64,000 nucleotides of DNA from Oscillibacter sp. (GCA_003539495.1 DPPB01000031.1:21407-85406); one strand, 5' to 3'; counted from the first letter of the stretch, positions 30,601 through 50,617 are shown. Translations and numbers: made by a program. Notes: generated by a model not told the origin, from the sequence alone.

Positions 30601-30708
30601 CAGGGAGCTGTTGTTCTCGTCGGGGGTGATGGTCACCACATCGCTGGACTGACCGTTCAGGTCCACCACGGTGTAATGCACATCCGGCAGGGCGATCTGG
30701 GCATTCAT
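27697..30708 (-). CDS. Large surface-associated protein: beta-domains, 4-5 FIVAR-like helical repeats, a prenyltransferase/terpene-cyclase-like alpha/alpha-toroid domain (the transcobalamin alpha-domain-like fold), a Pro/Asp/Thr linker and a C-terminal TM anchor
   Basis: 1003 aa. Tandem ~58-aa repeats …IDAIGEVTLESEEAIAAARAAYEALTEAQQAEVKSYDKLTAAEARLADLKAAK…. Toroid repeats …GGWNLSGENADTDMTAMAIQALAPYY…RSDGGFGSWG…SCAQVIVALTALG…. (DPSDPGKT)x3. C-terminal VLVWVIALPVALLAAAFVLKRKEREA. No N-terminal signal peptide in the listed frame. Confidence 0.7.
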   Translation of the reverse strand: MNAQIALPDVHYTVVDLNGQSSDVVTITPDENNSSLAYMKANKAGTAIVLVTYDAMTHMQGQTSNKENRGFSAIWPECTGVFVVSVGADGSSIATNMTMDRMDATISSDAQKALDAEHDILFYLGDAGASYSFKPEEGCTVTVARSTVTDKMSFSGFTSKGVTVAADGTVTVTGLTTGRHILCVEKDGVKTYQVVTARGVSYDFLDADGKVLPAGTEFKAGDKVTVQFHGLISPKEKISGAYNFNFTLYYKGADGKYYKSNPGGWGGVYDFSGNPVRQKLEITIPEDWDGLSFDLTGAINVGGFAKVPTHRILSYGDGIDNPYGTSAAAIVSQLPALSLKLEGWYVNDVIEKIDAIGEVTLASEEAITAARAAYEALTETQKEQVTNYNVLTAAEARLADLKAAKAVDDMIDAIGEVTLESEEAIAAARAAYEALTEAQQAEVKSYDKLTAAEARLADLKAAKPVDDMIDAIGEVTLESEDAIAAARAAYEALTEAQQAEVKSYDKLTAAEARLADLKAAKAVDDMIDAIGEVTLESEGAIDAARAAYEALTEAQQAEVKSYEKLTAAEARLAVLKPAKPVEKLIDAIGEVTLDSESAIQAARAAYDALTEEQKAEVKNYDKLTAAEAAYARLLAEQSERLEKIYKTTGDFIAALGTPGVGSTGGEWMVIGLARSGRTVPAGYYDNVVEYVKAMADANERLHRAKVTDNARIILALTAIGKDVTNVGGHNLLKGLDNMAYVQKQGINGPIFTLIALDSHNYPTMGDVTREKLIQVILDAQLPNGGWNLSGENADTDMTAMAIQALAPYYKTNETVKAAVDKALEALSTLQRSDGGFGSWGTVNSESCAQVIVALTALGIDPATDSRFVKNGSTVLGALAGFYVDGGGFKHTADGERNGMATEQGYYALASYYRFLNGQTSLYDMSDVTIQTGGNTPANPDDPGKTDPSDPGKTDPSDPGKTDPTNPGTDTPATGDTGVLVWVIALPVALLAAAFVLKRKEREA

Positions 30709-30726
30709 AAAGTTCTCAATGGCTTG

Positions 30727-33195
30727 CTAGCAGCGGAACACGTCCAGCTCCCGGGTCTGGCCCTGCTCCAGGTTCAGATAGCCCTTCTGATTGATATTCA
30801 GGTATACATTACCCAGGTCATAAACATTCTTATTGAAGCGGTTCACCGTGTCCTTGGTGAAGGACTCGTCCCCAATGTGCAGGTCGTCCTTGGTCACATT
30901 GAAGGTAGCGCCTGCCTTGTACTTGCCAAAGGTCCAGTAGGTCACGCCGTCCGGGTGCTGCACACGGAGGAAGTGGTTCACGCTGGTCTCCGACAGGAGG
31001 AAAGTGACGGTCATGGTGTCGCCCTCGGTCTTGGTAGACAGAGGCTTGGCGAAGTCATAGACATAGTAGTTGCCGAACTCGCCCATGCTGACAGTGGACC
31101 CGGCGGGGGCGGTGACGGTGACGGGCACGGCCACGGGGATCTTGGCAGTGAGGTCCAGCGCACCTTTATCCGTCGTTTCGCTGCGGGATTTTTTGACGGT
31201 GATGGGATTATAGTCCGCCGCCTTATCCCCCACAGGGGTCAGGGTTGCTTTCAGCGTGTCGCCCTCAACAAAAATGCCGGAGGTGCGGGTGGTGCCCCAG
31301 TTAGTGGAGGTGCCTGGCTCGGCCTTGCGGTTCATGCCGTCGGCGCTGACCACCTGGTAGTCGATGGTGTAGTCGGTGTTCTCGATCCAGCCGTTGTTGG
31401 TGGCATAGATCGCATAGACCCGCTGGAAGGTGATGGCAGTGGTGTCCTCCGCCACGGTGACAACGATGCCGCCGTTATACTGGCCGGCTTCATTGTAGCC
31501 CTGAACCCAGTAGTTGCCCACAGGCAGCTTCACATCGGCATACTTCAGTTTGTAGCCATCAGCCACGGTGGACTTGCCGGCCAGCAGGTCCACATCGCCC
31601 TTGACGCCGCCGGCATAGCTATACAGCTTCAGGGACGCCAGCTGGGCGCTATGCAGGCCCTTCAGGTCCAAGGTGACCATGGGGATCTCCTTGACCTTGG
31701 CCGTGGGATTCATCAGCGCATAGACTCCCTCGTCCTCGTTGCTCACGGCGGTGAGATAGCCGGTGAAGCCATCGGCCACGGTAAAGGTGGCCTGGCCCTT
31801 TTTATCGGTGACAGCGCCTTCAATGACGGTGACAGCGCCGGTCTCGGGATCCACCCAGCCCAGCTTGGCCCCCTCCAGGGGCTTGGCCGCAGCCTTCAGC
31901 TCGGCAGGAGTCTTGTGCAGGTAGGCACTCGAAGCGTAGAAGCCGGTGACGGTAGCGGTGACCTTCTGTCCCACATACATCTCGGCGGGAGCATCCACCC
32001 AGGTATAATAGTCCGACCAGGTGCTGTCATCCGCATACACGTAAAAGTCCACCACGTCGCCGCTGAGCAGCGGGGTATTGGTGACCATGGTGCCGTTGTA
32101 GCCGCCGCCGTAGGAGGCAGGGGTACCGTCATTGGGATACCCCTGGTTTACAAAGAAACCGCAGGCGTAGGTCTCAACGCCGAAAATCTTGGAGATCCAG
32201 CCGCTGCTGCCCACAGCCAGATACTCCCCGGCTGTTTCCTTGGTAAAGGCTTCACCAAAGACCAGCTCGTGGGCCTTGACCAGGGCGTCCAGGGCGGTCA
32301 CTCCCTCCAATGCATCGGTAAAGCCGTATTTCTCGGCTTCAAGGGCGGAAACCTCCACCTCCTGGGGTGCGTGGAGATAGGCGCCCACCATCTGGGAGCG
32401 GAGCGTCACCTTCACGGCGGCAGGGGCCTCCTGGGAAACGGTGATCTTATACTCGTGGGCCTCAGCATCTTTGTTCATGCTGGGCCAGGAGGGATCGCCG
32501 CACTTGACGGTGATGACCGTTCCGTCGGCCACAGGGATCTTAGCCGTGCGCTTGTACTCCGTGCCGTCCACGCTGGTGCGGACCTGGAAGTTCTTGTTGG
32601 TGGCGGTGGGAGTGACCTGAACGCTGCTGACCTTGGAGGACAGCTTCAGGGTATAGCTGTCGGTGTCCTTGTGAAAGGTGGGGGACAGCTGGCCATCGCT
32701 GAAGGTCAGGGCCTTGACGGTGGTGTCATTGTTATTCCAGCTGCCGCCCAGGTCGTCGCCATAGGCGCGGGTGTACATGACGCGGATCTCGTCGCCGGCC
32801 TCCAGGGTGCCTGCGGCCACGGTAAAGGCGGCGAAGCCTTCGTTGGTAAACCAATCGTTGAGGGTTCCCATCCAGCCGGAAGCGGAGCCGCCGTCAAGCT
32901 CAGACAGGCCGTTGATCTCGCTGATGTAGGTAGTGCCGGTATGGGTGTATCCCTTGGCGTCCAACGCCTCAAAGACACAGCCCATCATGGTGGAATCCCC
33001 GGTGAGCTTCACCCAGGTATCCACCAGCGTGCCGGTCCAGGCAGGAGCTTTACCATCCACAGGTTTTGTGAAGGTAGTGTTTTCCACGATGACATGGGCC
33101 TTGCCCAGGTCAACGGGCGCTGCCAGCACGGAGGTGGGCACCAGGGACAGGGCCATCACCAATGCCAGCAGCAGGGATAAAATCTTTTTCTTCAT
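30727..33195 (-). CDS. Secreted surface protein with two DUF4430 (transcobalamin beta-domain-like) domains, a cadherin-like beta-sandwich and further beta-domains
   Basis: Signal peptide MKKKILSLLLALVMALSLVPTSVLA. DUF4430 signatures …SGWMGTLNDWFTNEGFAAFTVAAGTLEAGDEIRVMYT… and …SSGWISKIFGVETYACGFFVNQGYPNDG…GDVVDFYVY…. Cadherin-like segment LTFSDGQLSPTFHKDTDSYTLKLSSKVSSVQVTPTA. By my count the stop is at 30726-30728, 17 nt before the next gene's start. Confidence 0.7.
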   Translation of the reverse strand: MKKKILSLLLALVMALSLVPTSVLAAPVDLGKAHVIVENTTFTKPVDGKAPAWTGTLVDTWVKLTGDSTMMGCVFEALDAKGYTHTGTTYISEINGLSELDGGSASGWMGTLNDWFTNEGFAAFTVAAGTLEAGDEIRVMYTRAYGDDLGGSWNNNDTTVKALTFSDGQLSPTFHKDTDSYTLKLSSKVSSVQVTPTATNKNFQVRTSVDGTEYKRTAKIPVADGTVITVKCGDPSWPSMNKDAEAHEYKITVSQEAPAAVKVTLRSQMVGAYLHAPQEVEVSALEAEKYGFTDALEGVTALDALVKAHELVFGEAFTKETAGEYLAVGSSGWISKIFGVETYACGFFVNQGYPNDGTPASYGGGYNGTMVTNTPLLSGDVVDFYVYADDSTWSDYYTWVDAPAEMYVGQKVTATVTGFYASSAYLHKTPAELKAAAKPLEGAKLGWVDPETGAVTVIEGAVTDKKGQATFTVADGFTGYLTAVSNEDEGVYALMNPTAKVKEIPMVTLDLKGLHSAQLASLKLYSYAGGVKGDVDLLAGKSTVADGYKLKYADVKLPVGNYWVQGYNEAGQYNGGIVVTVAEDTTAITFQRVYAIYATNNGWIENTDYTIDYQVVSADGMNRKAEPGTSTNWGTTRTSGIFVEGDTLKATLTPVGDKAADYNPITVKKSRSETTDKGALDLTAKIPVAVPVTVTAPAGSTVSMGEFGNYYVYDFAKPLSTKTEGDTMTVTFLLSETSVNHFLRVQHPDGVTYWTFGKYKAGATFNVTKDDLHIGDESFTKDTVNRFNKNVYDLGNVYLNINQKGYLNLEQGQTRELDVFRC

Positions 33196-35253: not shown

Positions 35254-36345
35254 TCAGAAGCAATCCTTTCCCCGGATGTCATCCAGATAGCTGTCGTCGA
35301 TGGCAGCGCCGGCAAAGGTGGCCATGCCCTCGGCGGCGGCGCAGGCCGCCTCCATCACCCGAAAAGCGATGGGGCAGCCGCTGCCCTCTCCCAGGCGCAT
35401 GCCCAGGTGCAGCCACGGCTCCAGGCCCAACTCCTTTACAGCGGCGGCATAGCCCACCTCGTGGGAGGCGTGAGAGGCGAAGAAATAGTCCTCTGCCGCC
35501 GGGCACAGCCGCCCGGCGCACAGGGCCGCCACCACGGAGATGAACCCATCGATGACCACCGGCAGCCGCTGCCGGGCCGCCCCCAGGAACACGCCGCACA
35601 TGGCGGCTATGTCCAATCCGCCCACCTTGCTCAAAACGTCCAGCACATCGTTTTTGTCCGGCCGGTGCAGGGCCAGGGCGTCGGTGATGACCTGCTTTTT
35701 TCGCAGGAAGCCTGCGTCGGTCATGCCGCCGCCACGGCCGGTGACAGCCTCTACCGGCAGGCCCGTCAGGGCTGCCAGCACCGCTGCGGAGGTGGTGGTG
35801 TTGCCAATGCCCATCTCCCCGGCGCCTAATATGGCCACACCCTCCTCCTTCGCCTGGCGGGCCAGCTCCATACCCGTCCAGACGGACCGGGCCGCCTCCT
35901 GCCGGGTCATAGCGGGCTCCCGCGCTAAATTGCGGGTACCGGGCAGGATCCTCCGGTTCAGGATAGCCGGGCAATCGTATTCATCGGCGATGCCCACATC
36001 CACCACCTGTATCTCATCTCCAAAGTGATGGGCCATAGCGCTCATACCGGTGCAATAGTTTGTCATGTTCACCGCCTGGGCCGCCGTGACGCTCCGGGGC
36101 GTCACGGATACGCCCTCCTCCACCACGCCGTTATCCGCACAGAGGACGATAATGCGGCAGGGGCTATAGACCGGGTGCAGCTTCCCGCTGATGCCGCACA
36201 GGCGGATATAGATATTCTCCAGCGCCCCCAGGCTGCCCGGGGGCTTGGCCAGGGTGCCCTGGTATACCGCCGCCCGGGCCATGGCATCGGCATCGGCGGG
36301 AGTGATATGGGGCAGCTCCTTTAGGAGCCGTTCTTCGTAATTCAT
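35254..36345 (-). CDS. cobT: Nicotinate-nucleotide--dimethylbenzimidazole phosphoribosyltransferase
   Basis: 363 aa with GEMGIGNTT, the catalytic Glu region and overall CobT collinearity. Start ATG 36345 overlaps the upstream gene's stop (ATGA). The 5' 185 codons of the track ORF overlap the TIM-barrel gene and are rejected. Confidence 0.9.
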   Translation of the reverse strand: MNYEERLLKELPHITPADADAMARAAVYQGTLAKPPGSLGALENIYIRLCGISGKLHPVYSPCRIIVLCADNGVVEEGVSVTPRSVTAAQAVNMTNYCTGMSAMAHHFGDEIQVVDVGIADEYDCPAILNRRILPGTRNLAREPAMTRQEAARSVWTGMELARQAKEEGVAILGAGEMGIGNTTTSAAVLAALTGLPVEAVTGRGGGMTDAGFLRKKQVITDALALHRPDKNDVLDVLSKVGGLDIAAMCGVFLGAARQRLPVVIDGFISVVAALCAGRLCPAAEDYFFASHASHEVGYAAAVKELGLEPWLHLGMRLGEGSGCPIAFRVMEAACAAAEGMATFAGAAIDDSYLDDIRGKDCF

Positions 36346-37100
36346 AGCGTTAAAAATCCTTTTTCCAGCAGCCAGCGGACGTTCTCCTCCGCCTGTAATG
36401 TCTCCAATGTATAGGTTAGGTGTTCTTCCCGGGCCAGTGCGTGCAGCACCTGCTCCATGGGGATGGTGCCCCGTTTCAGGGGGTCGTGAAGGTCCCCGCC
36501 GCCGGCATTGTTGTGCAGGTGCAGATGCCGCAGGTAGGGCCTGCACACCTCCACCCAATCCATGACCGGGGTGCGGGACAGCTCCGCATTGGCGTGGCCC
36601 ACATCCAGGCACAGCCGCAGCCGGGGGTCGTCCACCTGGCGGATGATGTCCACCGGAATCTGTGGCGACGGCTCCATGACGTTTTCCAGGCACAGGACCA
36701 TGCCCGCCGGCACCTGCGGCAGAAACTCCCGCCAAAACTCCACGGATTTCTCCACGAACCACTCCGGATAGTATACCCACGGGATAAATCCCGTGTGAAC
36801 CACCAGCAGCCGGCAACCCCAATCCTGGGCGGCAGCCAGGGCCTGGGCGTAGCGATGCCGGGCCAGGCTGACAGCCAGGGGGTCGATGGCGGCGGGACAC
36901 AGCTCATTGAACGGCGCATGGAACACAAACCGTTTCGCCGCCTGCCGGTGGCACTGTGCAGCTGTCACCACCTCCGGAATGGGGGCATCCAGATTCGCGG
37001 CAGTGCAGTATTCGGCAATCTCCAGGCCCAGACCGTACCGGGCGGCGGTCTCATCGCACCCGGCGGAAACGGTAGAAATATAGAGCTGGCTGCAGTCCAT
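36342..37100 (-). CDS. Sugar-phosphate isomerase/epimerase-like TIM-barrel protein (xylose-isomerase-like / AP-endonuclease-2 fold), first gene of the cobTUS operon
   Basis: 252 aa with the His/Glu/Asp metal-ligand pattern (…VVHTGF…CLENV…LDVGHANA…HLHLHNN…) typical of this superfamily. RBS GGAG. Stop overlaps the cobT start. Confidence 0.6.
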   Translation of the reverse strand: MDCSQLYISTVSAGCDETAARYGLGLEIAEYCTAANLDAPIPEVVTAAQCHRQAAKRFVFHAPFNELCPAAIDPLAVSLARHRYAQALAAAQDWGCRLLVVHTGFIPWVYYPEWFVEKSVEFWREFLPQVPAGMVLCLENVMEPSPQIPVDIIRQVDDPRLRLCLDVGHANAELSRTPVMDWVEVCRPYLRHLHLHNNAGGGDLHDPLKRGTIPMEQVLHALAREEHLTYTLETLQAEENVRWLLEKGFLTL

Positions 37101-37250: not shown

Positions 37251-37808
37251 TTACGCCTCTGTCAGGCCGTTTTCCGCCATGACCTTTTGCAGGATCGCCT
37301 CCGGGTCATTGCCCTGGATGTCCAGCCCCTCCGCCAGAAGCAGCCGGGTAGCTGGGATGCCGAAATAGTCCTCCGCCAGTGCCTTCACATACCCATAGCC
37401 AAAGCGCCCGTCAAAAGGGCCGCCCGACGTTGTGACATAGATCAGCTCCTCCGCCCGGCACATGCCCTCCGGCCGGCCGTCGGCGCCATACCGCGTCACG
37501 ATGCCCGTGGCGTAGATGTTTTCGATATAGATCTTCAGCTGAGCCGGGAAGGACAGGTCCCAGTAGGGCGCCGCTATCACGATCCGGTCCGCCGCGGCGA
37601 ACTGATGGGAATAGCGGAATATCTCGCCGTCCAGCTCGCCCCGGTCCAGCAGCTCCTCCCGATGGGGCAGCCGCTGGGGGTCCATAGCCCGGATGGGCTC
37701 ATCGTATAGTCGCAGCTCCTCGTACTCCCCCAGCTTTTTCAGCAGTGCCCGGGCCAGACGGTCCGTGCGGGAGTTCATCCGGGGGCAGCAGTTAATGTAT
37801 AGGGTCAT
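37251..37808 (-). CDS. Flavodoxin-like fold NAD(P)H-dependent FMN reductase / azoreductase-type oxidoreductase
   Basis: 185 aa. The MTLYINCCPR…RTDRLARALL N-terminus and DRIVIAAPYWDLSFPAQLK match the Flavodoxin_2/AzoR family pattern. Confidence 0.6.
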   Translation of the reverse strand: MTLYINCCPRMNSRTDRLARALLKKLGEYEELRLYDEPIRAMDPQRLPHREELLDRGELDGEIFRYSHQFAAADRIVIAAPYWDLSFPAQLKIYIENIYATGIVTRYGADGRPEGMCRAEELIYVTTSGGPFDGRFGYGYVKALAEDYFGIPATRLLLAEGLDIQGNDPEAILQKVMAENGLTEA

Positions 37809-37837: not shown

Positions 37838-38893
37838 TTACGCTTTTTCTATCTGCCGGGCAAAATCTGCCGCCCGCCGTTCGATACCCGGCAGGCGCAC
37901 AAGGCTCCCCCGCTCGTTGGCTGTTTCCAGCAGGCAGAAATGAGGCGGCAGGAAAAAGGACTTGTTCATATTCAGGGCCGAAATCAGCTGCCGGGCCAGT
38001 AAGTCACCCCCGGAGTAGCCGGAAACCACCAGGCCAAACAGGCGCTTGTCGTAAAACCGCTGCTGGCGAAACAGGGCCGTCAGGCGATTGACGCAGGCGG
38101 TGAGATTGGCAGACAGGGCGTCATTATAGTTGGCGCAGAGCATCACCAGCGCATCGCATCGGCGCACAGCGGGATAGACCTCCTGTACCATGGGCCCGCT
38201 TCCGTAAAAGCAGCTGCCCTGCTCACCGAAATGCAGACATGCGGTGTAGCTGCAGCCGTTGCAATCGGGCACGGTGCCGTTGCGCAGGCCGATTTCCTCC
38301 ACCTCCATCTCCGGCGGCAGCGCTCGGCGCACCAGCTCCCAAAAGGCCAGAGTGTTGGAGGTGCTGCGCTGGGAGGCATGCAGGGCCAGTATATGGCGGA
38401 TGGGCCCGGGCTTTTCCCAGGCTGCCAGCCTTTCTATCAGCTCCGAAATCGACGCCCGGAAGGCCGTCTCCTCATTCACGCCGCCTATCTGGGCCTGGAC
38501 ACGGAAATTGCGCAGCGATCCGGTGGCCTCCACCAGGGGCCGGCCCAAAAAGGCGCAGCCCGCCTGATTGGCGGCAAACACCATGTCCCGGGCCACATCC
38601 TTGGTGTAAAACTCCCCCACGCCTGTGACAATCACTCCGGCCACGCAGCCGGTAAGCAAGCTCACATCCCGCCGCAGCCGGGAGAGCATGTGATAGTACG
38701 CTTCATTGCAGCCTCCCTCGTCCAGAGCCACGGCAAACAGGAGGCGCCGACCCTGCAAGCCCTCCAGGTCTCTTTCCGGGTCAGCGAAGACGCTGCCCAG
38801 GGGCAGCAGGGGCGTGAGCATTTCCTCCAGGGCAGAGCTATATGCATTTTTCGGTAAAAGAACGGTCAGCGGCATTTTTACCCCTTCTTTCAT
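37838..38893 (-). CDS. Two-domain flavoprotein: an unknown N-terminal domain plus a C-terminal iron-sulfur-flavoprotein-like NADPH-dependent FMN reductase domain
   Basis: C-terminal …ILALHASQRSTSNTLAFWELV…CNGCSYTAC…CDALVMLCANYNDALSANL… is an Isf/FMN_red-like flavodoxin fold with a Cys cluster. No homology to the N-terminal 170 aa recognised by eye. Confidence 0.5.
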   Translation of the reverse strand: MKEGVKMPLTVLLPKNAYSSALEEMLTPLLPLGSVFADPERDLEGLQGRRLLFAVALDEGGCNEAYYHMLSRLRRDVSLLTGCVAGVIVTGVGEFYTKDVARDMVFAANQAGCAFLGRPLVEATGSLRNFRVQAQIGGVNEETAFRASISELIERLAAWEKPGPIRHILALHASQRSTSNTLAFWELVRRALPPEMEVEEIGLRNGTVPDCNGCSYTACLHFGEQGSCFYGSGPMVQEVYPAVRRCDALVMLCANYNDALSANLTACVNRLTALFRQQRFYDKRLFGLVVSGYSGGDLLARQLISALNMNKSFFLPPHFCLLETANERGSLVRLPGIERRAADFARQIEKA

Positions 38894-38894
38894 G

Positions 38895-39062
38895 GAGGCT
38901 GTCGAAAAGCCCTGTCATAGCGAAGCCAGTGCTGCGCACTGGCTTCGCTATCCGCTTTGGAAATTCGGATTTTAGGGTCTTCTTTGCAAATCTCAGGTGC
39001 TGAAGCCACGGGTTCCCACGTCGCTTCGCCCCTCGGAATGACAAAACGGAATTTTCGACAGT
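38895..39062. repeat. Family B palindromic repeat (GTCATAGCGAAGCCAGTGCTGCGCACTGGCTTCGCTATCCG plus a second half-copy) inserted between the LDH-like and flavoprotein genes
   Basis: Nested inverted repeats homologous to 18878-18925 and 59064-59110. Fills the whole 170-nt intergenic gap. Confidence 0.6.
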
Positions 39063-40292
39063 CTATTGTATAGCCTTTAATTTTTCCTCTGTCTCTTTCA
39101 GGCGGTCAAGAAGTGCCCTCGGTAACGGCAGGCGCTCAAATTCCACGCCCCCCGGCGTCATACGGTTGCGCCCGCCCATGAAAACGCCGCCTAAGTAGGC
39201 CGATGAGCAGTGCCACTGCCCCCGCAGGCACAGCAGCAGGCTCAGCGCCCCCGACGACAGGGCCGGAGCCACAAAGGGCTTAAAGCCCATTCGCCGCATC
39301 TCCAGGTTTGCATGGGCGGCCAGATCCGTCAGTTCCCGGGAGAGGGCATCGTCATAGTGCGAGATGGAGTTGGCGATGACCAGGTCCTCTCCATGGGGGC
39401 CGAAGCTGCGGCCGTCCGTGAGGAACTCCGCAAAACGGGAATCCCTTTTGGCATAATAGGCCGCCCGAGCGTTCATCACCCCCAGGCCGAAGCCCTTCAC
39501 CTGGTGGGGAAACAAGCCTCCGCCATCCAGGGTTCCATTTTCATCCCGGTTGCTCTCCAGCAGCACCGCCCGGCACAGGGGATCCACTGGATCACTGACC
39601 ACGCAAAACAGGCCCTTATACCGGGCCGCCCGGGCCTTTTTCGCATACAGCGCCGCCAGTTCCCGGTTCAGCTCGTACTGAGCCATGCGCACGTCTCCGT
39701 CTTTCACCGCCGTGTCCGGCACGAACCGGGACGCGCAGAACAGGAATACATCTCCATCAAACAGCTCCTCCGGCCCGATGATCTCCACCGGCGGCAGAGC
39801 GTCATATGCCCAGGGCAGGCCGATCTGATTCAGCTCAAATTCCCACCGCTGGGGCACGTTTTCCCGCAGGTCGCAGATGCCAATAGAGGCGATGATATCC
39901 CCGCCCAGCAGCCGCAGACCCTGGAGCAGCGTGCTGCCCACATCTCCCAGGCCCAGGAGGTTCACCCGGTATTTTCCCCTCCGCGATGGGGGGGAGAGCA
40001 GCTCCTGCCAGCGGGGGTGCAGCCGGTTCACGGCTCGCACCCGTCCCGTCCGGATGGCCTCCTCCAGCTCCGCCGGGATGGCCGGGCCCGGGGTGGAGGC
40101 ATCCAGGGTCTCCACGCCCTCCTTCTCCGTCAGCAGGGCCGCATCCGTCACCGGGAAGGTCTCCCGGCCCGTGAGCATTTCCCGGGCAAAGAGGAAAATG
40201 ATCTCTCCCTCCCCCGGCAGGGCGCCTATTCTTTCATAGGGCAGCGCCTCCCAGGCGCAGAGGGTGTGTCCCTCATAGCGATAGTAGTTCAT
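39063..40292 (-). CDS. L-lactate/malate dehydrogenase-family NAD-dependent dehydrogenase with a ~110-aa N-terminal extension
   Basis: Rossmann GxGxxG VNLLGLGDVGSTLLQGL…ICDL. LDH-like VVSDPVDPL (TNPVD equivalent). Catalytic-His region FGPHGEDLVIANS. Start ATGA overlaps the stop of the 1589-aa gene. Confidence 0.6.
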   Translation of the reverse strand: MNYYRYEGHTLCAWEALPYERIGALPGEGEIIFLFAREMLTGRETFPVTDAALLTEKEGVETLDASTPGPAIPAELEEAIRTGRVRAVNRLHPRWQELLSPPSRRGKYRVNLLGLGDVGSTLLQGLRLLGGDIIASIGICDLRENVPQRWEFELNQIGLPWAYDALPPVEIIGPEELFDGDVFLFCASRFVPDTAVKDGDVRMAQYELNRELAALYAKKARAARYKGLFCVVSDPVDPLCRAVLLESNRDENGTLDGGGLFPHQVKGFGLGVMNARAAYYAKRDSRFAEFLTDGRSFGPHGEDLVIANSISHYDDALSRELTDLAAHANLEMRRMGFKPFVAPALSSGALSLLLCLRGQWHCSSAYLGGVFMGGRNRMTPGGVEFERLPLPRALLDRLKETEEKLKAIQ

Positions 40293-43200
40293 ACCTTCGC
40301 CTCCTTTGTCATAAAGCGCATCCGCTTGAGCAGCTCGATGTCATCGTCCAGGTAGGTGGAGGCCCCCCGGCTCAGATCATAGGTCATGCTGCTTCCCTTG
40401 TCGGGGCACAGGGGCAGGATCACCGCCTCACTCAGGCGGCTGAGCGTCAGGTTCCGCGCAAAGATCCGCCGGTACTCCGTCTCCAGGGCCAGCAGGATGT
40501 TCCGGGCATTTTCCAGGCAGCACAGGCTCAGGGCCCAGGCGGTCTCCGGATCCAGCGGCCCGAACTCCGGGGAAGCATAGGGCAGGATCCGGTTCACAGA
40601 CGGCTGCAGGCCGCCCTCCATCCGCTCACTGCGGCGGATGGTATCTCCGCCGATGAAGGGATACAGCGTAGACTCCACAAAGCGCATCCGCAGATTGGGC
40701 AGGTAATATACGCCCTCGGCGTCATAGCCCAGACTCTCCATCAGATCCCGGCCGGTGCCGGTGAGATAGCCCACCAGCACCTTTTTTACCCGGGTACCGG
40801 TCTTTCGCAGCAGTGGTGCCAGGCGGCGGATACGCTTGCCGTCGTGGAGCACATCGTCCACTAAGATAGCGGGCCGGTCAAAGGCCCGAATGGTACGCAC
40901 CTGATCCTCCAGCGGGGAGTAATCCGGATATGCCTCAATGGAGTACGAGGATAGATCAGGCTCATACACCTTGTCTGTGCGCAGCGTCTTGGTGACGGTG
41001 TTGGGCACGATGACGCCGCGCATGAGCTTGCCATAGGGCACGCAGATATCCGGCCCCAGCTGCCGGGGCTGCGTAGGCTCCTCAGGTACGCCGTTGCACT
41101 CGGTGATGCGCCGCAGAAGCCTATGGTAAATCACCCCGGCAGACAGGCTCAGTACCAGCCCGCCCGGCTGGAGAAGTGTCATAGTCTCCTGCAGCCGCCG
41201 GTGCGCCGCCGCCACGGCAGCCACCACCATGGGGGCCGTAGACAAGGGGGGCTTTATGGTGGTGCCCACGTTGTTGCTGAGGATAATGGGCTGGCGCATG
41301 TCCACCGCCAGAGCGATGCGGGAGCAGCTGCCCGGCACAGGCACAAAGCCCTGCAGCCGCAGCAGATCCCGCGCCCAGGCATCCGCAAAGCCCTCCAGGG
41401 GCATATAAATGGCATAGGTGTACTCGCGGCCCAGGGCCAGGGTCAGCACCTCCGTCAAAAGCAGCTGACCCAGCTCATTCTGCTGGGAGGTCTGCGGCAC
41501 AAAAAGGCCGCTTACCAGCAGCGTCCGCCCGCCGGCGTTCTGCCGCACAAAGGCCGCCAGCTCTGCGCTCCCCAGCCGGGAGAACAGGTGCTGGGAATCC
41601 ATGCAGCAATAGGTGGCCGCCCCCAGCACCGTCTTGGTCTCCCCATTGGTCAGCAGCAGCACATCATCGCCGCTTTGGCGCAGCGCCCGCAGCACCGTCT
41701 CTGCGGCGGAGGCAGGCAGGGTCCGGCGCAGCATTGCGTTCAGGCGCTCCTCCTCCGGTCCGCAGGGGATAAACTCCAGATCCTCCGTCCGCAGCACGGG
41801 TTTATCCAGCGGCTCCCGCAGATACAGGCTGTGGCGGTAGATAAATTCCTGGGCCATGGGGTCAATAAGATGGGAGATATCCCGGTTAGCGTCCACCGCC
41901 TCCCGGATGCGGGTGGAGCTGATCTCCTCCAGCTCCTCTGGCAGGGTCAGCTCCAGCACCTTGCCGCTGATACAGCCGTAGTCCCCGACCATATCGGCAC
42001 CGGCCCGGCGGAATATCACATGGTCGAAGCTATGGATGGAATCCGGCTCCGTGGGCTTGCGATACGAGGAGGCGTGGGCCACCACGTCGCTGCCCACCAC
42101 AATGGATACCTCCCGTCCCGGGAACGCCCGGCGCAGTCGGCGCAGATTTTCGGGGTTGGCAATATTCACCGGGAAATCCTCCGGGAAGATATGCACATAA
42201 AATTCATCCGCCACAGACATGGCCGCAATCTCCCGCCGGACGCGGTAGGGCTGGGTGCGCTTAGACCAGGAAAACTCGTCGATGGCCAGCAGCACCTCAA
42301 AGCCCTCGTCCCGGATGGCCCGGACAATACCCTTGTGGGACAGGGTAAAGGGGTCAAAGGTACCGGGAAAGAAGGCCACAGGCCGAGGCGGTGAAAAGGA
42401 TACGCCCCCGCACAGCAGCTCCTGCTCCACCAAAAGCCGGTAGAGCCTGCCCAGCATGGCAGCCCGATAGTAAAAGTGCAGACCGCTCTCGCTCTCCGCC
42501 TGACATATGGCCAGGATGCGCCGGACCGTCAGCTGCAGGGACCGGCATTTCTCCTCCCGGTCCAGCACCGGCGAGCCGAACACATGTCTCCCCAGCAGAT
42601 ACATAGCCTCCTGCCGGGTACCCATGTCGATGCCCGCCGTACCCTTCATCAGCATACCCAGCAGCCGCTGGGCCCGGCCACGGCGAGTCCCCTCGTCCTC
42701 CGGAAAGCGCTCCCGATACACGGTGTAGGTCTCCAGGATCTCTGCAGCGGTATCCAGGGCTGAGGCCACGATATGCCCCTCTGAGGAGGAGAGGGAGGCA
42801 GCCAGGCCCACCAGAAGCTCATCCAGCTGCTCCGGCGGCAGCCACAGGGCAAAGCGTCCCAGATACTCCGGGATATACTTGGTGAATTCCTGCTGTCCCA
42901 GCTCCAGGCCCCGGCACAGCTCCACGGCAATCTCGTTGCGCTGATCCACGCTCAGCAGCGGTGCCAGCTCCAGCAGCGCGCCGCCGGCGCTGTGACGCAC
43001 GGTGACCCGGTCGCTGACCTTGATGAGGTTGGAGAAATGGGCGGCAATGTGCAGCACCTGACCGCCGCCGGCCTTGGCGTGCTCTGTCAGCAGGAGTATG
43101 TTCATTCTGCGGATAACCCACGGGGTGGCGGTTTTCAGGTTATCCAAGAAAATCTCCGAGATGGTCTCGTCCGGCAGGCGCACCACTTTTCCCTCCAGCA

Positions 43201-45058
43201 ATCGGCTGCGCAGGATAGACAGGGAGGTGCTGTCGCCGCAATGCATCTTTCTAAGCGCATTTTGGAGCCGCGGCTCTCCGGGCAGGGCCGCCAGCAGCGC
43301 CCGCAGCAGCAGTGCGGCAGACGTGCGCACCGTCAACTCCCGGGACCGGGCTGAAACCTCCGCAAAGCGCAGCAGCGTTTCCCGCTGCGCCGGGGTGCAG
43401 CGGTCCAGGGGCAGCGCCGCAAAGGTATCCAGCAGCCGGAATGCCACATCCGGCTCCATTCGCCCACCGCTGCGGCAATAGACCAGCAGGCAATCCAAAA
43501 AGCCCTCCTCCCGGCCCGGGCAATGCTGCAGCAGGGAGTTTACCGCAAATTTCAGGGTATATCCGATCCAACTGCGGTACTGGGGCATCAGCTTATGGTC
43601 CGGAAAGATGATTTTTTCCAAATACAGCTTCCACTGACCCAGGTCGGTGATATTGCCCAGGGGCTTGCTGTCCCGGGGGCGTTCCTTCACATAGCCCGCG
43701 TGGAAATCGGCGATGATGGCGCCCATCAGTGCCGCCGCCTGGCGGCGGATGTCACCCTCCCGGTGCATCAACAGCTCATAGAGAAACGCCAGCGTCTCCA
43801 TCTTCTGCGGCAGGCGCAGATACAGGGAGTAGGATTCGATAACCCCCAGATAGGCTCGCAGCCGCCGCCAATCCGTCTCGCCCCGGGCCTGCTCCAGCAG
43901 CTGGGCAAAGCTCCGTAGTCCCGTGAGCCGATCCATCAGCCGGATATTATGCTCCACGCATACCAGGCGCAGCACGTCCAGGGCCTCCTCATCCGTCATC
44001 AGTGCCGCCGGCTTTTCCCTCCGGGGCGGCATATTGCGGCTCTGTAGTGAGGTATCCACCCCACGCTCGCTCAAAAAGCGCTCAAAATCCCGCAGCCGGG
44101 TGTATACCCGGCGGTAGCGCTGCTTTTTCTGCTCATCCACTCCGTCCAGCTTGGACAAGATCACGTCAAATGCCTCGGACAGGGTGGAGATGCAGGTAAT
44201 CTCCTCCCCATGGGCTCCCCATATCTGCTTCACCCGGAAATCCGCATAGATCAGCAGCAGTGACTCCACAGACAGATAGTCCGGCTCTAAGTCCCACACG
44301 GAGTGGTTGGCGGCCACATGTCCGATATCCGAGAGCTTATGCCGCCGGAACCAGAGGTCCGTGTAGTAGTAGTGCAGGTACGGCACCCGCTCCCCCGGCC
44401 GGCAGCCGAATTTGCCGATGTCGTGCCCGGCGGCACTGCCGGACACCAGGGCCAGATCCACGGGGATCCCGGTCTCTCGCAATCCCCGGCCCATGGTCAC
44501 GGCGATGTGATGCACCCCCGCAATATGCTCCAGCGCCCGGAACGGCGTGACCTCCAGGCCCAGACGCATCATCTCATACACATACTCCCGCTTCCATAGC
44601 CGCAGCATCTGCCCATAGCCCGCCGCACAGGGGCTGCCCTCCAGCTCTTCCTCTTGTAAAAAGGCAAAATCCCACATGGGGTCAAAGGGCTGCAGCTCAC
44701 GCTCTGCACCAAACAGCACCTGCAGCACCGACAGCAGGAAGGCCGCACCGGCTCCGCAGGAAAAGTCCCTCCCCTGCTCCGGGAAAAGCTGCCGCCTGGC
44801 ATAATCAAAGGTATAGAGCAGCCAGCCCTCTTGAGGCGTCTGGGGGCACAGCTGCTCCAGCTCACCCCGGCACAGCTCCAGTACCTGTGCGCACTGCACC
44901 CGCCCGCCATCCAGCAGCGGTGCAAAGCGCTGCATATAGTTCTCCCGCTCCAATCCCTGCAAAAGCTCCTTCTGCCGGGCGAAATAGTCTCCCGCGGGCC
45001 GTTTTTGCAGCCTGCGCAGCAGCAGCACGTTCATCTGCCGTATCTTCTTTTTATTCAT
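40289..45058 (-). CDS. Giant multidomain protein: N-terminal HD-domain phosphohydrolase, helical central region, NadD/NMNAT-like nucleotidyltransferase, small alpha/beta (GNAT-like?) segment, C-terminal type-I phosphoribosyltransferase domain
   Basis: 1589 aa. HD motif …HHIAVTM…AAGHDIGKFG…LLLIYADF. Nucleotidyltransferase PGTFDPFTLSHKG plus ISSTRIREA (the NadD ISSTxIR motif). PRTase PRPP loop RPAILVDDVLHDGKRIRRL with a PurF-like flank. Own TTTACA-N17-TAGCAT promoter and a GGGGG RBS. Confidence 0.65.
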   Translation of the reverse strand: MNKKKIRQMNVLLLRRLQKRPAGDYFARQKELLQGLERENYMQRFAPLLDGGRVQCAQVLELCRGELEQLCPQTPQEGWLLYTFDYARRQLFPEQGRDFSCGAGAAFLLSVLQVLFGAERELQPFDPMWDFAFLQEEELEGSPCAAGYGQMLRLWKREYVYEMMRLGLEVTPFRALEHIAGVHHIAVTMGRGLRETGIPVDLALVSGSAAGHDIGKFGCRPGERVPYLHYYYTDLWFRRHKLSDIGHVAANHSVWDLEPDYLSVESLLLIYADFRVKQIWGAHGEEITCISTLSEAFDVILSKLDGVDEQKKQRYRRVYTRLRDFERFLSERGVDTSLQSRNMPPRREKPAALMTDEEALDVLRLVCVEHNIRLMDRLTGLRSFAQLLEQARGETDWRRLRAYLGVIESYSLYLRLPQKMETLAFLYELLMHREGDIRRQAAALMGAIIADFHAGYVKERPRDSKPLGNITDLGQWKLYLEKIIFPDHKLMPQYRSWIGYTLKFAVNSLLQHCPGREEGFLDCLLVYCRSGGRMEPDVAFRLLDTFAALPLDRCTPAQRETLLRFAEVSARSRELTVRTSAALLLRALLAALPGEPRLQNALRKMHCGDSTSLSILRSRLLEGKVVRLPDETISEIFLDNLKTATPWVIRRMNILLLTEHAKAGGGQVLHIAAHFSNLIKVSDRVTVRHSAGGALLELAPLLSVDQRNEIAVELCRGLELGQQEFTKYIPEYLGRFALWLPPEQLDELLVGLAASLSSSEGHIVASALDTAAEILETYTVYRERFPEDEGTRRGRAQRLLGMLMKGTAGIDMGTRQEAMYLLGRHVFGSPVLDREEKCRSLQLTVRRILAICQAESESGLHFYYRAAMLGRLYRLLVEQELLCGGVSFSPPRPVAFFPGTFDPFTLSHKGIVRAIRDEGFEVLLAIDEFSWSKRTQPYRVRREIAAMSVADEFYVHIFPEDFPVNIANPENLRRLRRAFPGREVSIVVGSDVVAHASSYRKPTEPDSIHSFDHVIFRRAGADMVGDYGCISGKVLELTLPEELEEISSTRIREAVDANRDISHLIDPMAQEFIYRHSLYLREPLDKPVLRTEDLEFIPCGPEEERLNAMLRRTLPASAAETVLRALRQSGDDVLLLTNGETKTVLGAATYCCMDSQHLFSRLGSAELAAFVRQNAGGRTLLVSGLFVPQTSQQNELGQLLLTEVLTLALGREYTYAIYMPLEGFADAWARDLLRLQGFVPVPGSCSRIALAVDMRQPIILSNNVGTTIKPPLSTAPMVVAAVAAAHRRLQETMTLLQPGGLVLSLSAGVIYHRLLRRITECNGVPEEPTQPRQLGPDICVPYGKLMRGVIVPNTVTKTLRTDKVYEPDLSSYSIEAYPDYSPLEDQVRTIRAFDRPAILVDDVLHDGKRIRRLAPLLRKTGTRVKKVLVGYLTGTGRDLMESLGYDAEGVYYLPNLRMRFVESTLYPFIGGDTIRRSERMEGGLQPSVNRILPYASPEFGPLDPETAWALSLCCLENARNILLALETEYRRIFARNLTLSRLSEAVILPLCPDKGSSMTYDLSRGASTYLDDDIELLKRMRFMTKEAKV

Positions 45059-45095
45059 GGCGGCGCCCCCTGTTTCGGTGGTTTTCTTTTCTATT

Positions 45096-45124
45096 ATGCT
45101 ACCACAGCCGCCGCCTGATGTAAA
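45096..45124 (-). promoter_or_regulatory. Sigma-A promoter (TTTACA-N17-TAGCAT) of the giant-protein / LDH-like operon
   Basis: Hexamers about 35 nt upstream of the ATG at 45058, just downstream of the glyA terminator. Confidence 0.55.
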
Positions 45125-47601: not shown

Positions 47602-49002
47602 TCACTCCGCCTCGTAGATAGCCTTGCAGCCCTTATAGGTCATATAGCAGTCCAGCTTGGCCACGGTCTCAAAGGGGGCGTGCATGCTCAGCACAGGGAC
47701 GCCCGCGTCCAGGGTGGCAATGTTGCGGTTGGCCATATACATGGCCACGGTGCCGCCGCCGCCGGCATCCACCTTGCCCAGCTCCGAAATGTGCCAGAGA
47801 ACATCTGCCTCGTCCAGCACCCGGCGGACATAGGCCACCGTCTCCGCCGAAGCATCGGAGGCGCCGGACTTGCCCCGGGCGCCGGTATACTTGCATAGGC
47901 CGATGCCGTAGTTGACAAAGGCGGCGTTGCGCTTTTCAAATACCTCCGGGAAGTTGGGGTCGTAGGCCGCCGTCACATCGCAGGAGAGGCAGAAGGAGTT
48001 TTCATAGCACGCCCGCAGAGGCACACCCTGCCCGTCGCACAGGTCGTGCATAAAGGTATCAAAGGCGGCGGACTGCATACCCGTAACGCCCATAGAGCCG
48101 ATCTCCTCCTTGTCCGCCAGCATACACACGGCGGTCTTGGTGGGATCAGCAAGCTCCAGGATCGCCTGCAGGCCGGCGTAGCCGCACACCCGGTCATCGT
48201 GGCCGTAGGCACCGATGAGGCTGGCGTCCAGGCCGATGTCCGTGGGCTGGGCCGCAGGGACGGCCTCCAGTTCGGCGGAGGTGAAATCGTCCTCGGTGAT
48301 GCCGTACTTTTCAAACAGCTTCTCCAGAATATGCATCTTCACCCGGTCCTTTTCGTCCTCCTCACCGGAGGGGCAGGAGCCCAGGAGAATATTCAGGCTC
48401 TCGCCGGGTACAGCCTCGTTGAGAGGCTTTTTCCCCTGCTCACCGCCCAAATGGGGCAGCAGATCGGTGATGACAAACTTGGCCTCGTCCCCCTCACCCA
48501 GCCTCACGGGCACCACGGTGCCGTCCTTCTTGGCCACCACGCCGTGGAGCTCCAGGGGGATGGTCACCCACTGGTACTTGCGGATGCCGCCGTAGTAATG
48601 GGTCTTGAAAAAGGCCATCTCGCTGTCCTCATACAGAGGATTAGGCTTCAGGTCCAGCCGGGGAGAGTCGATATGGGCGGCCACGATGTGTGCGCCCTGG
48701 GCCAGGCTCTCCCGGCCTATCACCGCCAGCATGACGCTCTTGTCCCGATTCACCCGATAGATTTTGTCCCCGGCGGCCAGGGCCGCGCCCCGCTCATAGG
48801 GCTTGAAGCCCGCCTTTTCCGCCAGCTCCACGGCCACCCGGGCGCACTCGCGCTCGGTTTTGCCCTGCTGCAGAAAGGTCTTATACAGGCCGCAGTAGCG
48901 CTCCATGGCCTGCAGCTCCTCCGCCTTGATGCGGTCATAGCCGTTCTTCCGCGGAGAAAGCAGCTTTTCCCGCAGGGCCTCTCTTTCCTCACTCATGGTC
49001 AA
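47602..49002 (-). CDS. M18-family aminopeptidase (aspartyl aminopeptidase-like)
   Basis: 466 aa with metal-ligand segments HIDSP, GAYGHDDR, MLADKEEIGSMG and MHAPFE. Confidence 0.75.
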   Translation of the reverse strand: MTMSEEREALREKLLSPRKNGYDRIKAEELQAMERYCGLYKTFLQQGKTERECARVAVELAEKAGFKPYERGAALAAGDKIYRVNRDKSVMLAVIGRESLAQGAHIVAAHIDSPRLDLKPNPLYEDSEMAFFKTHYYGGIRKYQWVTIPLELHGVVAKKDGTVVPVRLGEGDEAKFVITDLLPHLGGEQGKKPLNEAVPGESLNILLGSCPSGEEDEKDRVKMHILEKLFEKYGITEDDFTSAELEAVPAAQPTDIGLDASLIGAYGHDDRVCGYAGLQAILELADPTKTAVCMLADKEEIGSMGVTGMQSAAFDTFMHDLCDGQGVPLRACYENSFCLSCDVTAAYDPNFPEVFEKRNAAFVNYGIGLCKYTGARGKSGASDASAETVAYVRRVLDEADVLWHISELGKVDAGGGGTVAMYMANRNIATLDAGVPVLSMHAPFETVAKLDCYMTYKGCKAIYEAE

Positions 49003-50617
49003 ATACCTCCCAAATCAATTTTCTGAAAAATGTCCGTGCCTGGGCCTCAAATTCTCCGGCGCTATCCGCCCGGTTATACAGCAGCCGCCCACAGCGGCTT
49101 TCATAGTACTCCTCCGGTCGCTGGGCGCCGATGCGCAGCCGGGCATAGTCCTCGGATATGCCGTCCCGGAGCATGATACGCTGCACCCGCTGCTCTCTGG
49201 GTGCCAGCACCGCCACCGTCTCCCGGCAGTAGGCCGCCAGCCCGCTCTCAAACAGGTTGATGGCGTCCAGCCCCACAATCAGCTGCCCCTCTGCCTCCCG
49301 GCGGATCACCGGCAGCAGGTGGAAATTCACGATATCGTTGAGTCTCTGCAGGGCGTCCGGGTCGGAGAAAACGATGCCGCCCAGCTTCTGCCGGTCCAGC
49401 TTCTCCCCGTCGAACACCTCGCCGAAGGCCCGGGTAATATCCCGGCGCAGGGCGGAATTCGCAGCCAGCTCCCGGTGATACACGGCGTCGCAATCGATGA
49501 TCCGTCCCCCCAGGGTCTCCAGCGCATGCAGGGCGCTGGTCTTACCGCTGCCGGTGCCGCCGGTGATGCCGATGACAAGCTCCGGCAGACGGTCCGCGTC
49601 CACAATGTGAAAGCCCGCCGCCTTCTTCAGCCGGTTGCCCACCGCCAGGCCCAGGCCGGTATCATCCGGACACTGGGCATAGATATGTGTAACATCCGTG
49701 CTGTCAAACCGGCGCAGGGCGTCAAAGACCCGGTGGGCCTGCTGGGCGGTATCCTCCGCCGCTCCCAGGGATTGCAGCGCCCGGCCGGCAAACCGCTGCC
49801 GGAACTCCTCAAAGCAGATGACACCCTCCCTCTCCTGCAGCGCAGCCTGTATAAATGCAGCGCTGCGTTCGGGCCGGCCGGTGACCACCGTCACCGGGGC
49901 GTGGGGGGCATAGTGGCGATACTTCATACCCGGAGCCCGGGGCGGCTCGCTGCCCGTTACCTTCTGTGTAACGGCCTTGTCCACGGCCACCTCGCCCAGA
50001 ATACGGCGCAGGTCCTCCAGCGGCAGGCCGCCGGGACGCAGGAGTCGGGGCGGGCTGACGGTGAGGTCGATAATGGTGGATTCCACCCCCACCCGGCAGG
50101 GCCCGCCGTCCACGATGCCGTCTATCTTGCCGTCCATATCCTCCAGCATGTCGGCGGCGCTGGTAGGGCTGGGCCGGCCGGAGGTATTGCCGCTGGGGGC
50201 GGCCACAGGCACTCCCGCCGCCCGGATAATAGCCCGTGTAACGGCGTGATCCGGGCAGCGGACGCCCACGGTCTCTAAGCCCCCGGTGGTGCGCAGGGGC
50301 ACGATGGCTTTGCGGGGCAGGATCATGGTCAGAGGCCCCGGCCAAAACTCCCGGGCCAGGCGGTAGGCCGTATCCGGCACAACTGCGCAGAACCGCTCCA
50401 GCCAGCCGGCCTCCGGCACATGGAGGATCAGGGGATTATCCTGGGGACGACCCTTGGCCTGGAATATGTGCCCCACCGCATCCTCATTCAAGGCGTTGGC
50501 GCCCAAGCCGTAGACCGTTTCCGTGGGGATGCCCAAGAGGCCCCCCTCCCGGAGGATCTGTGCCGCTTCCTTGATTTCATTTTCCCCATTTTCTGGGTGA
50601 AATACCCTTGTTTTCAA
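48989..50617 (-). CDS. tsaC: Fusion of L-threonylcarbamoyladenylate synthase (Sua5/TsaC with the Sua5 C-terminal domain) and dephospho-CoA kinase (CoaE)
   Basis: The N-terminal YrdC fold (…GLLGIPTETVYGLGANAL…) plus the Sua5 domain. The C-terminal ~200 aa have P-loop IGITGGTGSGKTS and CoaE collinearity. Confidence 0.8.
   Translation of the reverse strand: MKTRVFHPENGENEIKEAAQILREGGLLGIPTETVYGLGANALNEDAVGHIFQAKGRPQDNPLILHVPEAGWLERFCAVVPDTAYRLAREFWPGPLTMILPRKAIVPLRTTGGLETVGVRCPDHAVTRAIIRAAGVPVAAPSGNTSGRPSPTSAADMLEDMDGKIDGIVDGGPCRVGVESTIIDLTVSPPRLLRPGGLPLEDLRRILGEVAVDKAVTQKVTGSEPPRAPGMKYRHYAPHAPVTVVTGRPERSAAFIQAALQEREGVICFEEFRQRFAGRALQSLGAAEDTAQQAHRVFDALRRFDSTDVTHIYAQCPDDTGLGLAVGNRLKKAAGFHIVDADRLPELVIGITGGTGSGKTSALHALETLGGRIIDCDAVYHRELAANSALRRDITRAFGEVFDGEKLDRQKLGGIVFSDPDALQRLNDIVNFHLLPVIRREAEGQLIVGLDAINLFESGLAAYCRETVAVLAPREQRVQRIMLRDGISEDYARLRIGAQRPEEYYESRCGRLLYNRADSAGEFEAQARTFFRKLIWEVFDHE

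Follow-up and report, generated by a model that had tools for sequence, protein, structure and literature searches.

A 64,000-nucleotide (nt) stretch of DNA from Oscillibacter sp. (GCA_003539495.1, DPPB01000031.1:21407-85406), referred to here in its full length as the window, encodes on its minus strand a 1589-amino-acid (aa) multidomain protein with nucleotidyltransferase, phosphoribosyltransferase (PRT) and HD phosphohydrolase folds. We found that this big protein is the product of a real gene conserved across gut Clostridia, and that the functional unit is a three-gene module embedded in varying housekeeping surroundings. The module consists of the big gene, a gene for a protein resembling lactate and malate dehydrogenases (LDH and MDH), and a gene for a flavoprotein with an FMN_red domain:

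40289..45058, minus strand: gene of the multidomain protein (1589 aa; stop codon included; from the list of open reading frames [ORFs] and translation)
39063..40292, minus strand: gene of the LDH/MDH-like Rossmann protein (409 aa), whose start overlaps the upstream stop by ATGA
37838..38893, minus strand: third module gene, encoding a 351-aa flavoprotein with an FMN_red domain and a four-cysteine motif (Cys4)

An interpretation made earlier from the sequence alone (the sequence-only reading) had described the first two genes, and the ORF list and translation reproduced both exactly, with lengths of 1589 and 409 aa and the ATGA overlap. The motif AAGGAGG lies 7 nt upstream of this stop/start overlap.

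A word-indexed search retrieved 7,533 database homologs of the 1589-aa protein. The top 120 were all approximately 1586 aa long and 70-99% identical to the query. A single cluster at 90% identity comprised 992 member sequences. HMMER, run exhaustively with the C-terminal 1200 residues as the query, returned 922 clusters (50% identity) at E <= 1e-3, of which 313 reached E <= 1e-30, and full-length homologs (1538-1676 aa) were still retrieved at identities as low as 25%. The domain order was identical across an alignment of 66 full-length members (65 homologs, down to 26% identity). Five homologs of approximately 1220-1310 aa (P0210, P0214, P0230, P0231 and P0239) begin near the HEAT region and have no N-terminal HD part; they could represent a natural HD-less or split variant or, alternatively, truncated metagenomic ORFs.

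To compare loci, we used the best 80 of at least 349 relatives found in a scan of one genome per species. Nearly all of these 80 were Clostridia, with a single Flexilinea metagenome-assembled genome among them. The carriers included Vescimonas, Dysosmobacter, Oscillibacter and Lawsonibacter of the Oscillospiraceae, as well as Lachnospiraceae, Anaerovoracaceae, Peptococcaceae, Sedimentibacter and Anaerotignum.

The LDH-like gene was found directly downstream of the big gene in 62 of the 68 loci with enough flanking sequence, so the pairing noticed in the window is conserved. In 55 of 57 loci, the LDH-like gene was in turn followed by the FMN_red gene, which shares its strand and lies at a median gap of approximately 115 nt. 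De novo ORF clustering of the loci revealed no conserved neighbor besides this trio. The neighbors that recurred at low frequency are, as we take their sequences to indicate, an ABC ATPase, a predicted membrane protein, a glutamate-dehydrogenase-like protein, MetK and a histidine kinase. Because the order of the trio was kept and no other neighbor was conserved in the 80 loci, we regard the three genes as the functional unit. The sequence-only reading had pointed to two flavoproteins nearby. The one at 37838-38893 proved to be the third member of the module, overlooked as such, whereas the one at 37251-37808 is not conserved.

The whole protein is covered by no curated family, as Pfam and NCBIfam match single domains only. 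None of approximately 165 homologs looked at among the 7,533 carried a name from any source, a sequence search of the PDB with single proteins gave no significant match, and literature searches found no description of the five-domain architecture. The impression that this domain combination is not recognizable among characterized enzymes was thus borne out by the databases. PADLOC defense-system models gave no match, viral contigs yielded only two motif matches of 31-35 residues, and the module is no phage or defense element.

The five domains of the big protein are arranged as follows, from the N to the C terminus:

aa 1-340 (core approximately 165-340), 44039..45058, minus strand: all-helical N-terminal region with an HD-type phosphohydrolase domain (motifs, AlphaFold2 model, Foldseek)
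aa 341-885, 42404..44038, minus strand: HEAT/ARM-like helical solenoid (family profile, sub-threshold Pfam matches)
aa 886-1085, 41804..42403, minus strand: NadD/NMNAT-like nucleotidyltransferase domain (PF01467, profiles, hhalign, motifs)
aa 1086-1295, 41174..41803, minus strand: GNAT-fold domain (GNAT fold found)
aa 1296-1589, 40292..41173, minus strand: type-I PRT-fold domain with C-terminal helices (PRT core fold found)

The PRT, nucleotidyltransferase (NTase) and HD domains were the most conserved parts of the protein and the GNAT domain was the least conserved. The family PF01467 (cytidylyltransferase-like) matched aa 896-1053 with E = 4.8e-5 and 24 bits, compared to a gathering cut-off of 21. 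Pfam scans for weak domains were run on six diverse family members; PF01467 was significant in four of these, and a fifth scored just under the cut-off. The NadD equivalog models of NCBIfam matched with E values of approximately 4e-7, yet their scores were far below the curated cut-offs (29.6 bits versus 150 for NF000840 and 30.1 versus 112 for TIGR00482). The family profile matched NMNAT/NadD structures with E of 2e-6, and hhalign aligned the domain with Escherichia coli NadD over 189 columns at 95.3% probability. With E. coli CoaD (phosphopantetheine adenylyltransferase, PPAT), hhalign covered the first 43 columns only (42% identity, 93% probability), and with CitC it found no match for the domain.

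The motifs FPGTFDPF(S/T)LSH, in which H908 is at least 90% conserved, and ISSTRIR are both retained in the family. The glycine of the (H/T)xGH motif is a serine in the 1589-aa protein, at a position that is not conserved in the family. DEFSWSK stands in place of the P..PP(H)K element of NadD, and (A/S)Y in place of the WY pair. Thus, the domain likened to adenylyltransferases of nicotinic acid mononucleotide (NaMN) and nicotinamide mononucleotide (NMN) on the strength of GTFDPxT…H and ISSTRIR is upheld, as it is significant by PF01467 and aligns over its full length with NadD.

The PRT domain displays a conserved VILVDD followed by LLHKGYR, not by a TG.T-type loop. The Pfam Pribosyltran model scored on this loop with E of 0.04-0.15 only, so the type-I PRT domain named previously is borne out in its core fold, without significance at the sequence level. 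The segment between the NTase and the PRT domain, described previously as a small alpha/beta segment, does exist; its description is corrected here to a GNAT fold without the acetyl-CoA loop. We found no conserved glycine pattern of GNAT motif A (the Q/RxxGxG/A acetyl-CoA pyrophosphate loop) in 33 displayed sequences and no Pfam acetyltransferase match for the domain. Judging from its sequence, it is probably not a canonical acetyltransferase.

The metal-ligand motif H...HD...H...D of the HD domain was preserved, with H178, H212-D213, H252 and D273 each at least 90% conserved among the 66 sequences. The Pfam HD model remained below threshold, with E of 0.014-0.03 and 15-16 bits, compared to a cut-off of 22, in three of the six diverse members. 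The AlphaFold2 model of aa 1-340 was all-helical, with a pLDDT (predicted local distance difference test) of 93. Its best Foldseek matches were weak (E of approximately 0.14-0.7) and were HD hydrolases: 1xx7 (the top match, with E of 0.14 and a probability of 0.99), 2pq7, PgpH, YedJ and an HD-GYP protein. No YqeK structure was among the top Foldseek matches of the region, and no YqeK model was among the NCBIfam matches at E <= 1. Because the nearest folds are generic HD hydrolases and no YqeK model matched, we conclude that the domain, by its motifs, belongs to the HD superfamily and is not demonstrably YqeK-like; of the YqeK-like HD domain proposed earlier, the HD motifs stand and the YqeK likeness does not. 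The long helical region that follows was confirmed and appears HEAT-like from weak HEAT/ARM signals. The family profile matched the HEAT repeats of CAND2 with E of 0.003 at profile positions 686-843, and diverse members gave sub-threshold HEAT/ARM Pfam matches within aa 341-885, where conservation is patchy.

Both partners belong to redox families. The LDH-like core starts at approximately aa 107 of the 409-aa protein. A profile of 31 orthologs matched L-LDH/MDH structures with E from 5e-6 to 1e-3, and Pfam Ldh_1_N reached 14 bits, compared to a cut-off of 27. In the orthologs, G116, D117, V118 and G119 of the GLGDVG motif are invariant, as are R202, R276 and H300; conservation of D141 reaches at least 90%. 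A motif alignment equates R202, R276 and H300 with Arg109, Arg171 and His195 of LDH and places the invariant M273 and D234 at the positions of Asp168 and Asn140, respectively. Because of these Met and Asp replacements, the protein is best described, at the level of its sequence, as a divergent LDH/MDH member with a predicted altered active site. The N-terminal extension of approximately 105 aa is not universal. At least 14 orthologous loci lack it, with no more than 143 nt separating the big gene from the LDH-like core. The family assignment and the extension, which had been put at 110 aa, therefore hold for the window's protein, the extension being confined to some lineages.

In the 351-aa protein, PF03358 (FMN_red) matched aa 168-323 with E = 2.6e-17 and 63 bits, compared to a cut-off of 24. 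Its cysteines C211, C214, C219 and C228 (CX2CX4CX8C) are invariant in 25 orthologs. They are grouped compactly behind the first strands, as in iron-sulfur flavoproteins (Isf), and by analogy the Cys4 motif probably binds an Fe-S cluster. The N-terminal domain of approximately 165 aa had no family match; the protein had no NCBIfam match, and its profile gave no significant PDB match.

Building on the observed folds and motifs, their fixed order and the three-gene arrangement, we infer the catalytic steps, the direction of flux, the substrate and the physical contacts between the proteins as follows. Our tentative proposal, to which we give less than an even chance, is that ribosylation dependent on phosphoribosyl pyrophosphate (PRPP) and subsequent adenylylation produce a dinucleotide resembling nicotinamide adenine dinucleotide (NAD), with the HD hydrolase proofreading and two redox partners alongside. 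Within the conserved three-gene module, found in anaerobic Clostridia, the big protein would act as the catalytic core. Its type-I PRT domain would convert PRPP and a base or acid to a ribonucleoside 5'-monophosphate, the NadD-like domain would transfer AMP from ATP onto this mononucleotide to form the NAD-like dinucleotide, and the HD domain, as a metal-dependent phosphohydrolase, would cleave wrong or surplus product. The GNAT-fold domain, its acetyl-CoA loop lost, may be a spacer or a ligand-binding module, and the HEAT solenoid of approximately 550 aa may form a scaffold, possibly docking both partners. The LDH-like protein, a Rossmann protein of the NAD(H) type, and the Cys4 flavoprotein would make, reduce or use the base or the dinucleotide, and the presence of two redox partners suggests that the base or the product is redox-active.

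The HD, NTase and PRT domains all handle phosphoribosyl or nucleotide chemistry. Ribosylation, adenylylation and hydrolysis form the simplest chemically coherent order. The proofreading step has a precedent in mycoplasmas, where NadD is fused to an HD domain, YqeK, that cleaves analogs of nicotinic acid adenine dinucleotide (NaAD) made by NadD (PMC9426524). The sequence-only reading had envisaged the same assembly line, which is still a reasonable hypothesis; its further suggestion, that the product feeds CobT, is contradicted by the gene context. In its widest form, our proposal would have the module make and use a new dinucleotide-type cofactor or signaling metabolite in gut Clostridia, with the LDH-like protein and the Fe-S flavoprotein as dedicated redox or biosynthetic partners. 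We consider this wider version unlikely.

Several observations weigh against the proposed pathway. Since the NadD equivalog scores are far below their cut-offs, the acceptor of the NTase need not be a pyridine mononucleotide. The PRT domain was never significant by sequence, and the flexible-loop residues of orotate PRT have no obvious counterparts in it, so it could be a non-catalytic sensor of nucleotides or PRPP. The LDH-like protein, given its active-site residues, may not act as a 2-hydroxyacid dehydrogenase. The module was linked to no nucleotide or cofactor genes, no transporters and no riboswitches, and in six loci the big gene had neither partner within 7 kb downstream (L013, L024, L027, L035, L060 and L061, the last with only approximately 1.7 kb to the contig end). 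The partners in these six may lie elsewhere in the genome or have been lost.

The NTase might instead be a true NaMN/NMN adenylyltransferase, either a NadD paralog or the only NadD of the cell. The HD domain would then proofread or degrade analogs of NaAD or NAD, or diadenosine tetraphosphate (Ap4A), the PRT and GNAT domains would be allosteric sensors of PRPP, nucleotides or acyl-CoA, and the partners would couple NAD synthesis to the redox state. NadD and NMNAT were the closest families in every sequence test, and there is a documented fusion of NadD with a proofreading HD domain (PMC9426524). However, a score of 29.6 bits against a NadD equivalog cut-off of 150, the replacement of P..PP(H)K by DEFSWSK and of the Trp in the WY pair by Ala or Ser, and an HD domain that is not YqeK-like make a role in NAD homeostasis rather unlikely. 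PRT-fold domains are effector sensors in the regulators PurR and PyrR, but the PRT domain of the big protein is among its most conserved parts, which is more in keeping with catalysis than with sensing. The protein could also be a regulator analogous to GlnE, GlnD and RelA-SpoT, in which the NTase adenylylates a protein (e.g., the LDH-like partner), the HD domain removes the mark, the HEAT region binds the target and the PRT and GNAT domains sense metabolites. A scaffold as large as the HEAT region suggests that a macromolecule is bound, and bidirectional regulators typically pair an HD domain with a nucleotidyltransferase. In addition, the GNAT domain is degenerate, and the partner genes are tightly linked. 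We regard such a regulator as improbable, however, as the NTase aligns over its full length with a small-molecule enzyme and, to our knowledge, no use of the HIGH-type NadD/PPAT fold in protein adenylylation is on record.

Less probable again is chemistry of the coenzyme A (CoA) or prosthetic-group type, in which a PPAT-like NTase, a CoA-binding GNAT domain and the PRT domain would build a group resembling phosphoribosyl-dephospho-CoA. The N-terminal NTase motif FPGTFDPF..SH with LAI..S.SK does resemble E. coli PPAT, and CoA binding is typical of GNAT folds. But the likeness to PPAT ends after 43 columns while NadD aligns throughout, the CoA-pyrophosphate loop of the GNAT domain is not conserved, and there are no acyl-carrier or lyase genes nearby. 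An identity as a CitC-like ligase was rejected, as hhalign found no match of the NTase to CitC. The explanation considered in the sequence-only reading, in which CobT would receive NaMN or an activated base from the big enzyme to make the lower ligand of corrinoids, is in our view very improbable. In its favor, the module is located upstream of cobT-cobU-cobS in the window, and cobU/cobS also lie within 5 kb in two distant loci, L069 and L070. In these two, which are the only loci besides the window with a cob gene nearby, cobS- and cobU-like genes are located on the opposite strand just beyond the module (L069 14730-16780, L070 9232-11294). We ran tblastn with CobT, CobU, CobS, serine hydroxymethyltransferase (SHMT), DegV, M18, Sua5-CoaE and the small flavodoxin of the window against the 80 loci, and none of these proteins showed a conserved association with the big gene. 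CobT was present in none of the 80, CobU/CobS were limited to the two loci above, SHMT occurred in four, and the 185-aa flavodoxin-like protein never co-occurred with the big gene; the neighborhoods otherwise consisted of unrelated housekeeping genes. Thus, gene context in the 80 loci largely refutes the corrinoid link. That the module lies beside cobTUS in the window appears incidental.

The corrinoid genes of the window have features of their own. The CobT ORF (35254-36900, minus strand) spans 548 aa, of which only aa 199-534 form the DBI_PRT domain; either the true start is internal or the protein has an unassigned N-terminal extension of approximately 198 aa, and the ORF overlaps the cobU ORF by approximately 60 nt. 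Directly beyond cobS, the region 27697-33195 (minus strand) contains a 1003-aa ORF with a sub-threshold match to a prenyltransferase-like alpha-alpha toroid and an 822-aa ORF with DUF4430 and a cadherin-like domain. These two may be surface corrinoid-binding proteins, in which case they would account for the B12 theme of this region more readily than the big gene does. Farther away, at 48989-50617 (minus strand), a single 542-aa ORF joins both domains of Sua5/TsaC (threonylcarbamoyl-AMP synthase) to dephospho-CoA kinase (CoaE), an unusual fusion of a tRNA-modification enzyme with an enzyme of the CoA pathway.

The upstream neighbor of the big gene is glyA, which encodes SHMT and ends at approximately 45235. 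By reading the sequence, we found 3' of glyA a 12-bp GC-rich hairpin and then a short T-run, after which comes a promoter-like site:

45096..45124, minus strand: TTTACA-17-TAGCAT with TG in front (consensus scan and sequence; pattern match only)

This candidate promoter (45124-45096 in the direction of transcription) is suggestive of a promoter belonging to the 1589-aa gene itself. The evidence is weak because the site scores 9 of 12 and the region contains five such sites, compared to 2.3 expected by chance. The sigma-A promoter assigned in the sequence-only reading is therefore present as a candidate pattern. In the 170-nt gap between the LDH-like and flavoprotein genes, a perfect inverted repeat without a T-run, cgaagccagtgc...gcactggcttcg, occupies 38920-38950 (minus strand); a terminator, an attenuator and an operator are candidate roles for it. 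A check for riboswitches and leader RNAs gave no Rfam match in the window, nor upstream of the big gene in seven loci.

The big protein and its homologs, which are abundant among the gut Clostridia of humans and animals, belong to no curated family. Their most conserved domains are those that would build and break nucleotides, and the big gene travels with those of two redox proteins. If the module does produce a new dinucleotide, or controls the supply of NAD, it would supply a missing piece in the cofactor metabolism of dominant gut anaerobes. H908, D1401/D1402, H212-D213 and the Cys4 motif of the partner flavoprotein provide concrete experimental handles.

All domains of the big protein come from known superfamilies, and none reaches membership at the subfamily level. 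The five-domain order matches no curated family and no publication that we found, and the conserved trio is undescribed. The closest relatives of the NTase are NadD and NMNAT (PF01467), with which it shares a HIGH-type Rossmann fold, the (T/S)xxH and ISSTxIR motifs and a full-length alignment with E. coli NadD. As in the NadD-YqeK fusions of mycoplasmas (PMC9426524), an HD phosphohydrolase is part of the same polypeptide. Unlike those proteins, which have roughly 200-400 aa, the big protein has approximately 1589 aa; its HD domain is N-terminal, is separated from the NTase by approximately 550 aa of HEAT repeats and is not YqeK-like. It further differs from NadD in its altered mononucleotide-binding motifs, in the added GNAT and PRT domains and in scores far below the cut-offs. 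NadR (helix-turn-helix [HTH]-NMNAT-ribosylnicotinamide kinase) and NadM-Nudix also have an NMNAT-type domain fused to further nucleotide-handling domains; the big protein has no HTH, kinase or Nudix domain and no homology to them outside the NTase. Citrate lyase ligase CitC likewise combines GNAT-like and cytidylyltransferase-like folds in one chain, but in the reverse order, and its NTase was not matched by hhalign.

Among type-I PRTs, the PRT domain is closest to orotate PRT (2yzk, 3qw4). It differs in its loop, DDLLHKGYR rather than DD..TGGT, in flexible-loop residues that are not recognizable, and in its extra N-terminal strands and long C-terminal helices. The first partner resembles L-LDH/MDH in its NAD-type GxGxxG motif, the Asp at the end of beta2 and the equivalents of Arg109, Arg171 and His195, whereas the invariant Met (for Asp168) and Asp (for Asn140), a longer substrate loop and, in some lineages, the extension of approximately 105 aa set it apart. 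The FMN_red domain and four invariant cysteines of the third protein recall Isf and the NADPH-dependent FMN (flavin mononucleotide) reductases (PF03358), but it is distinguished by the cysteine spacing CX2CX4CX8C and by an extra N-terminal domain of approximately 165 aa.

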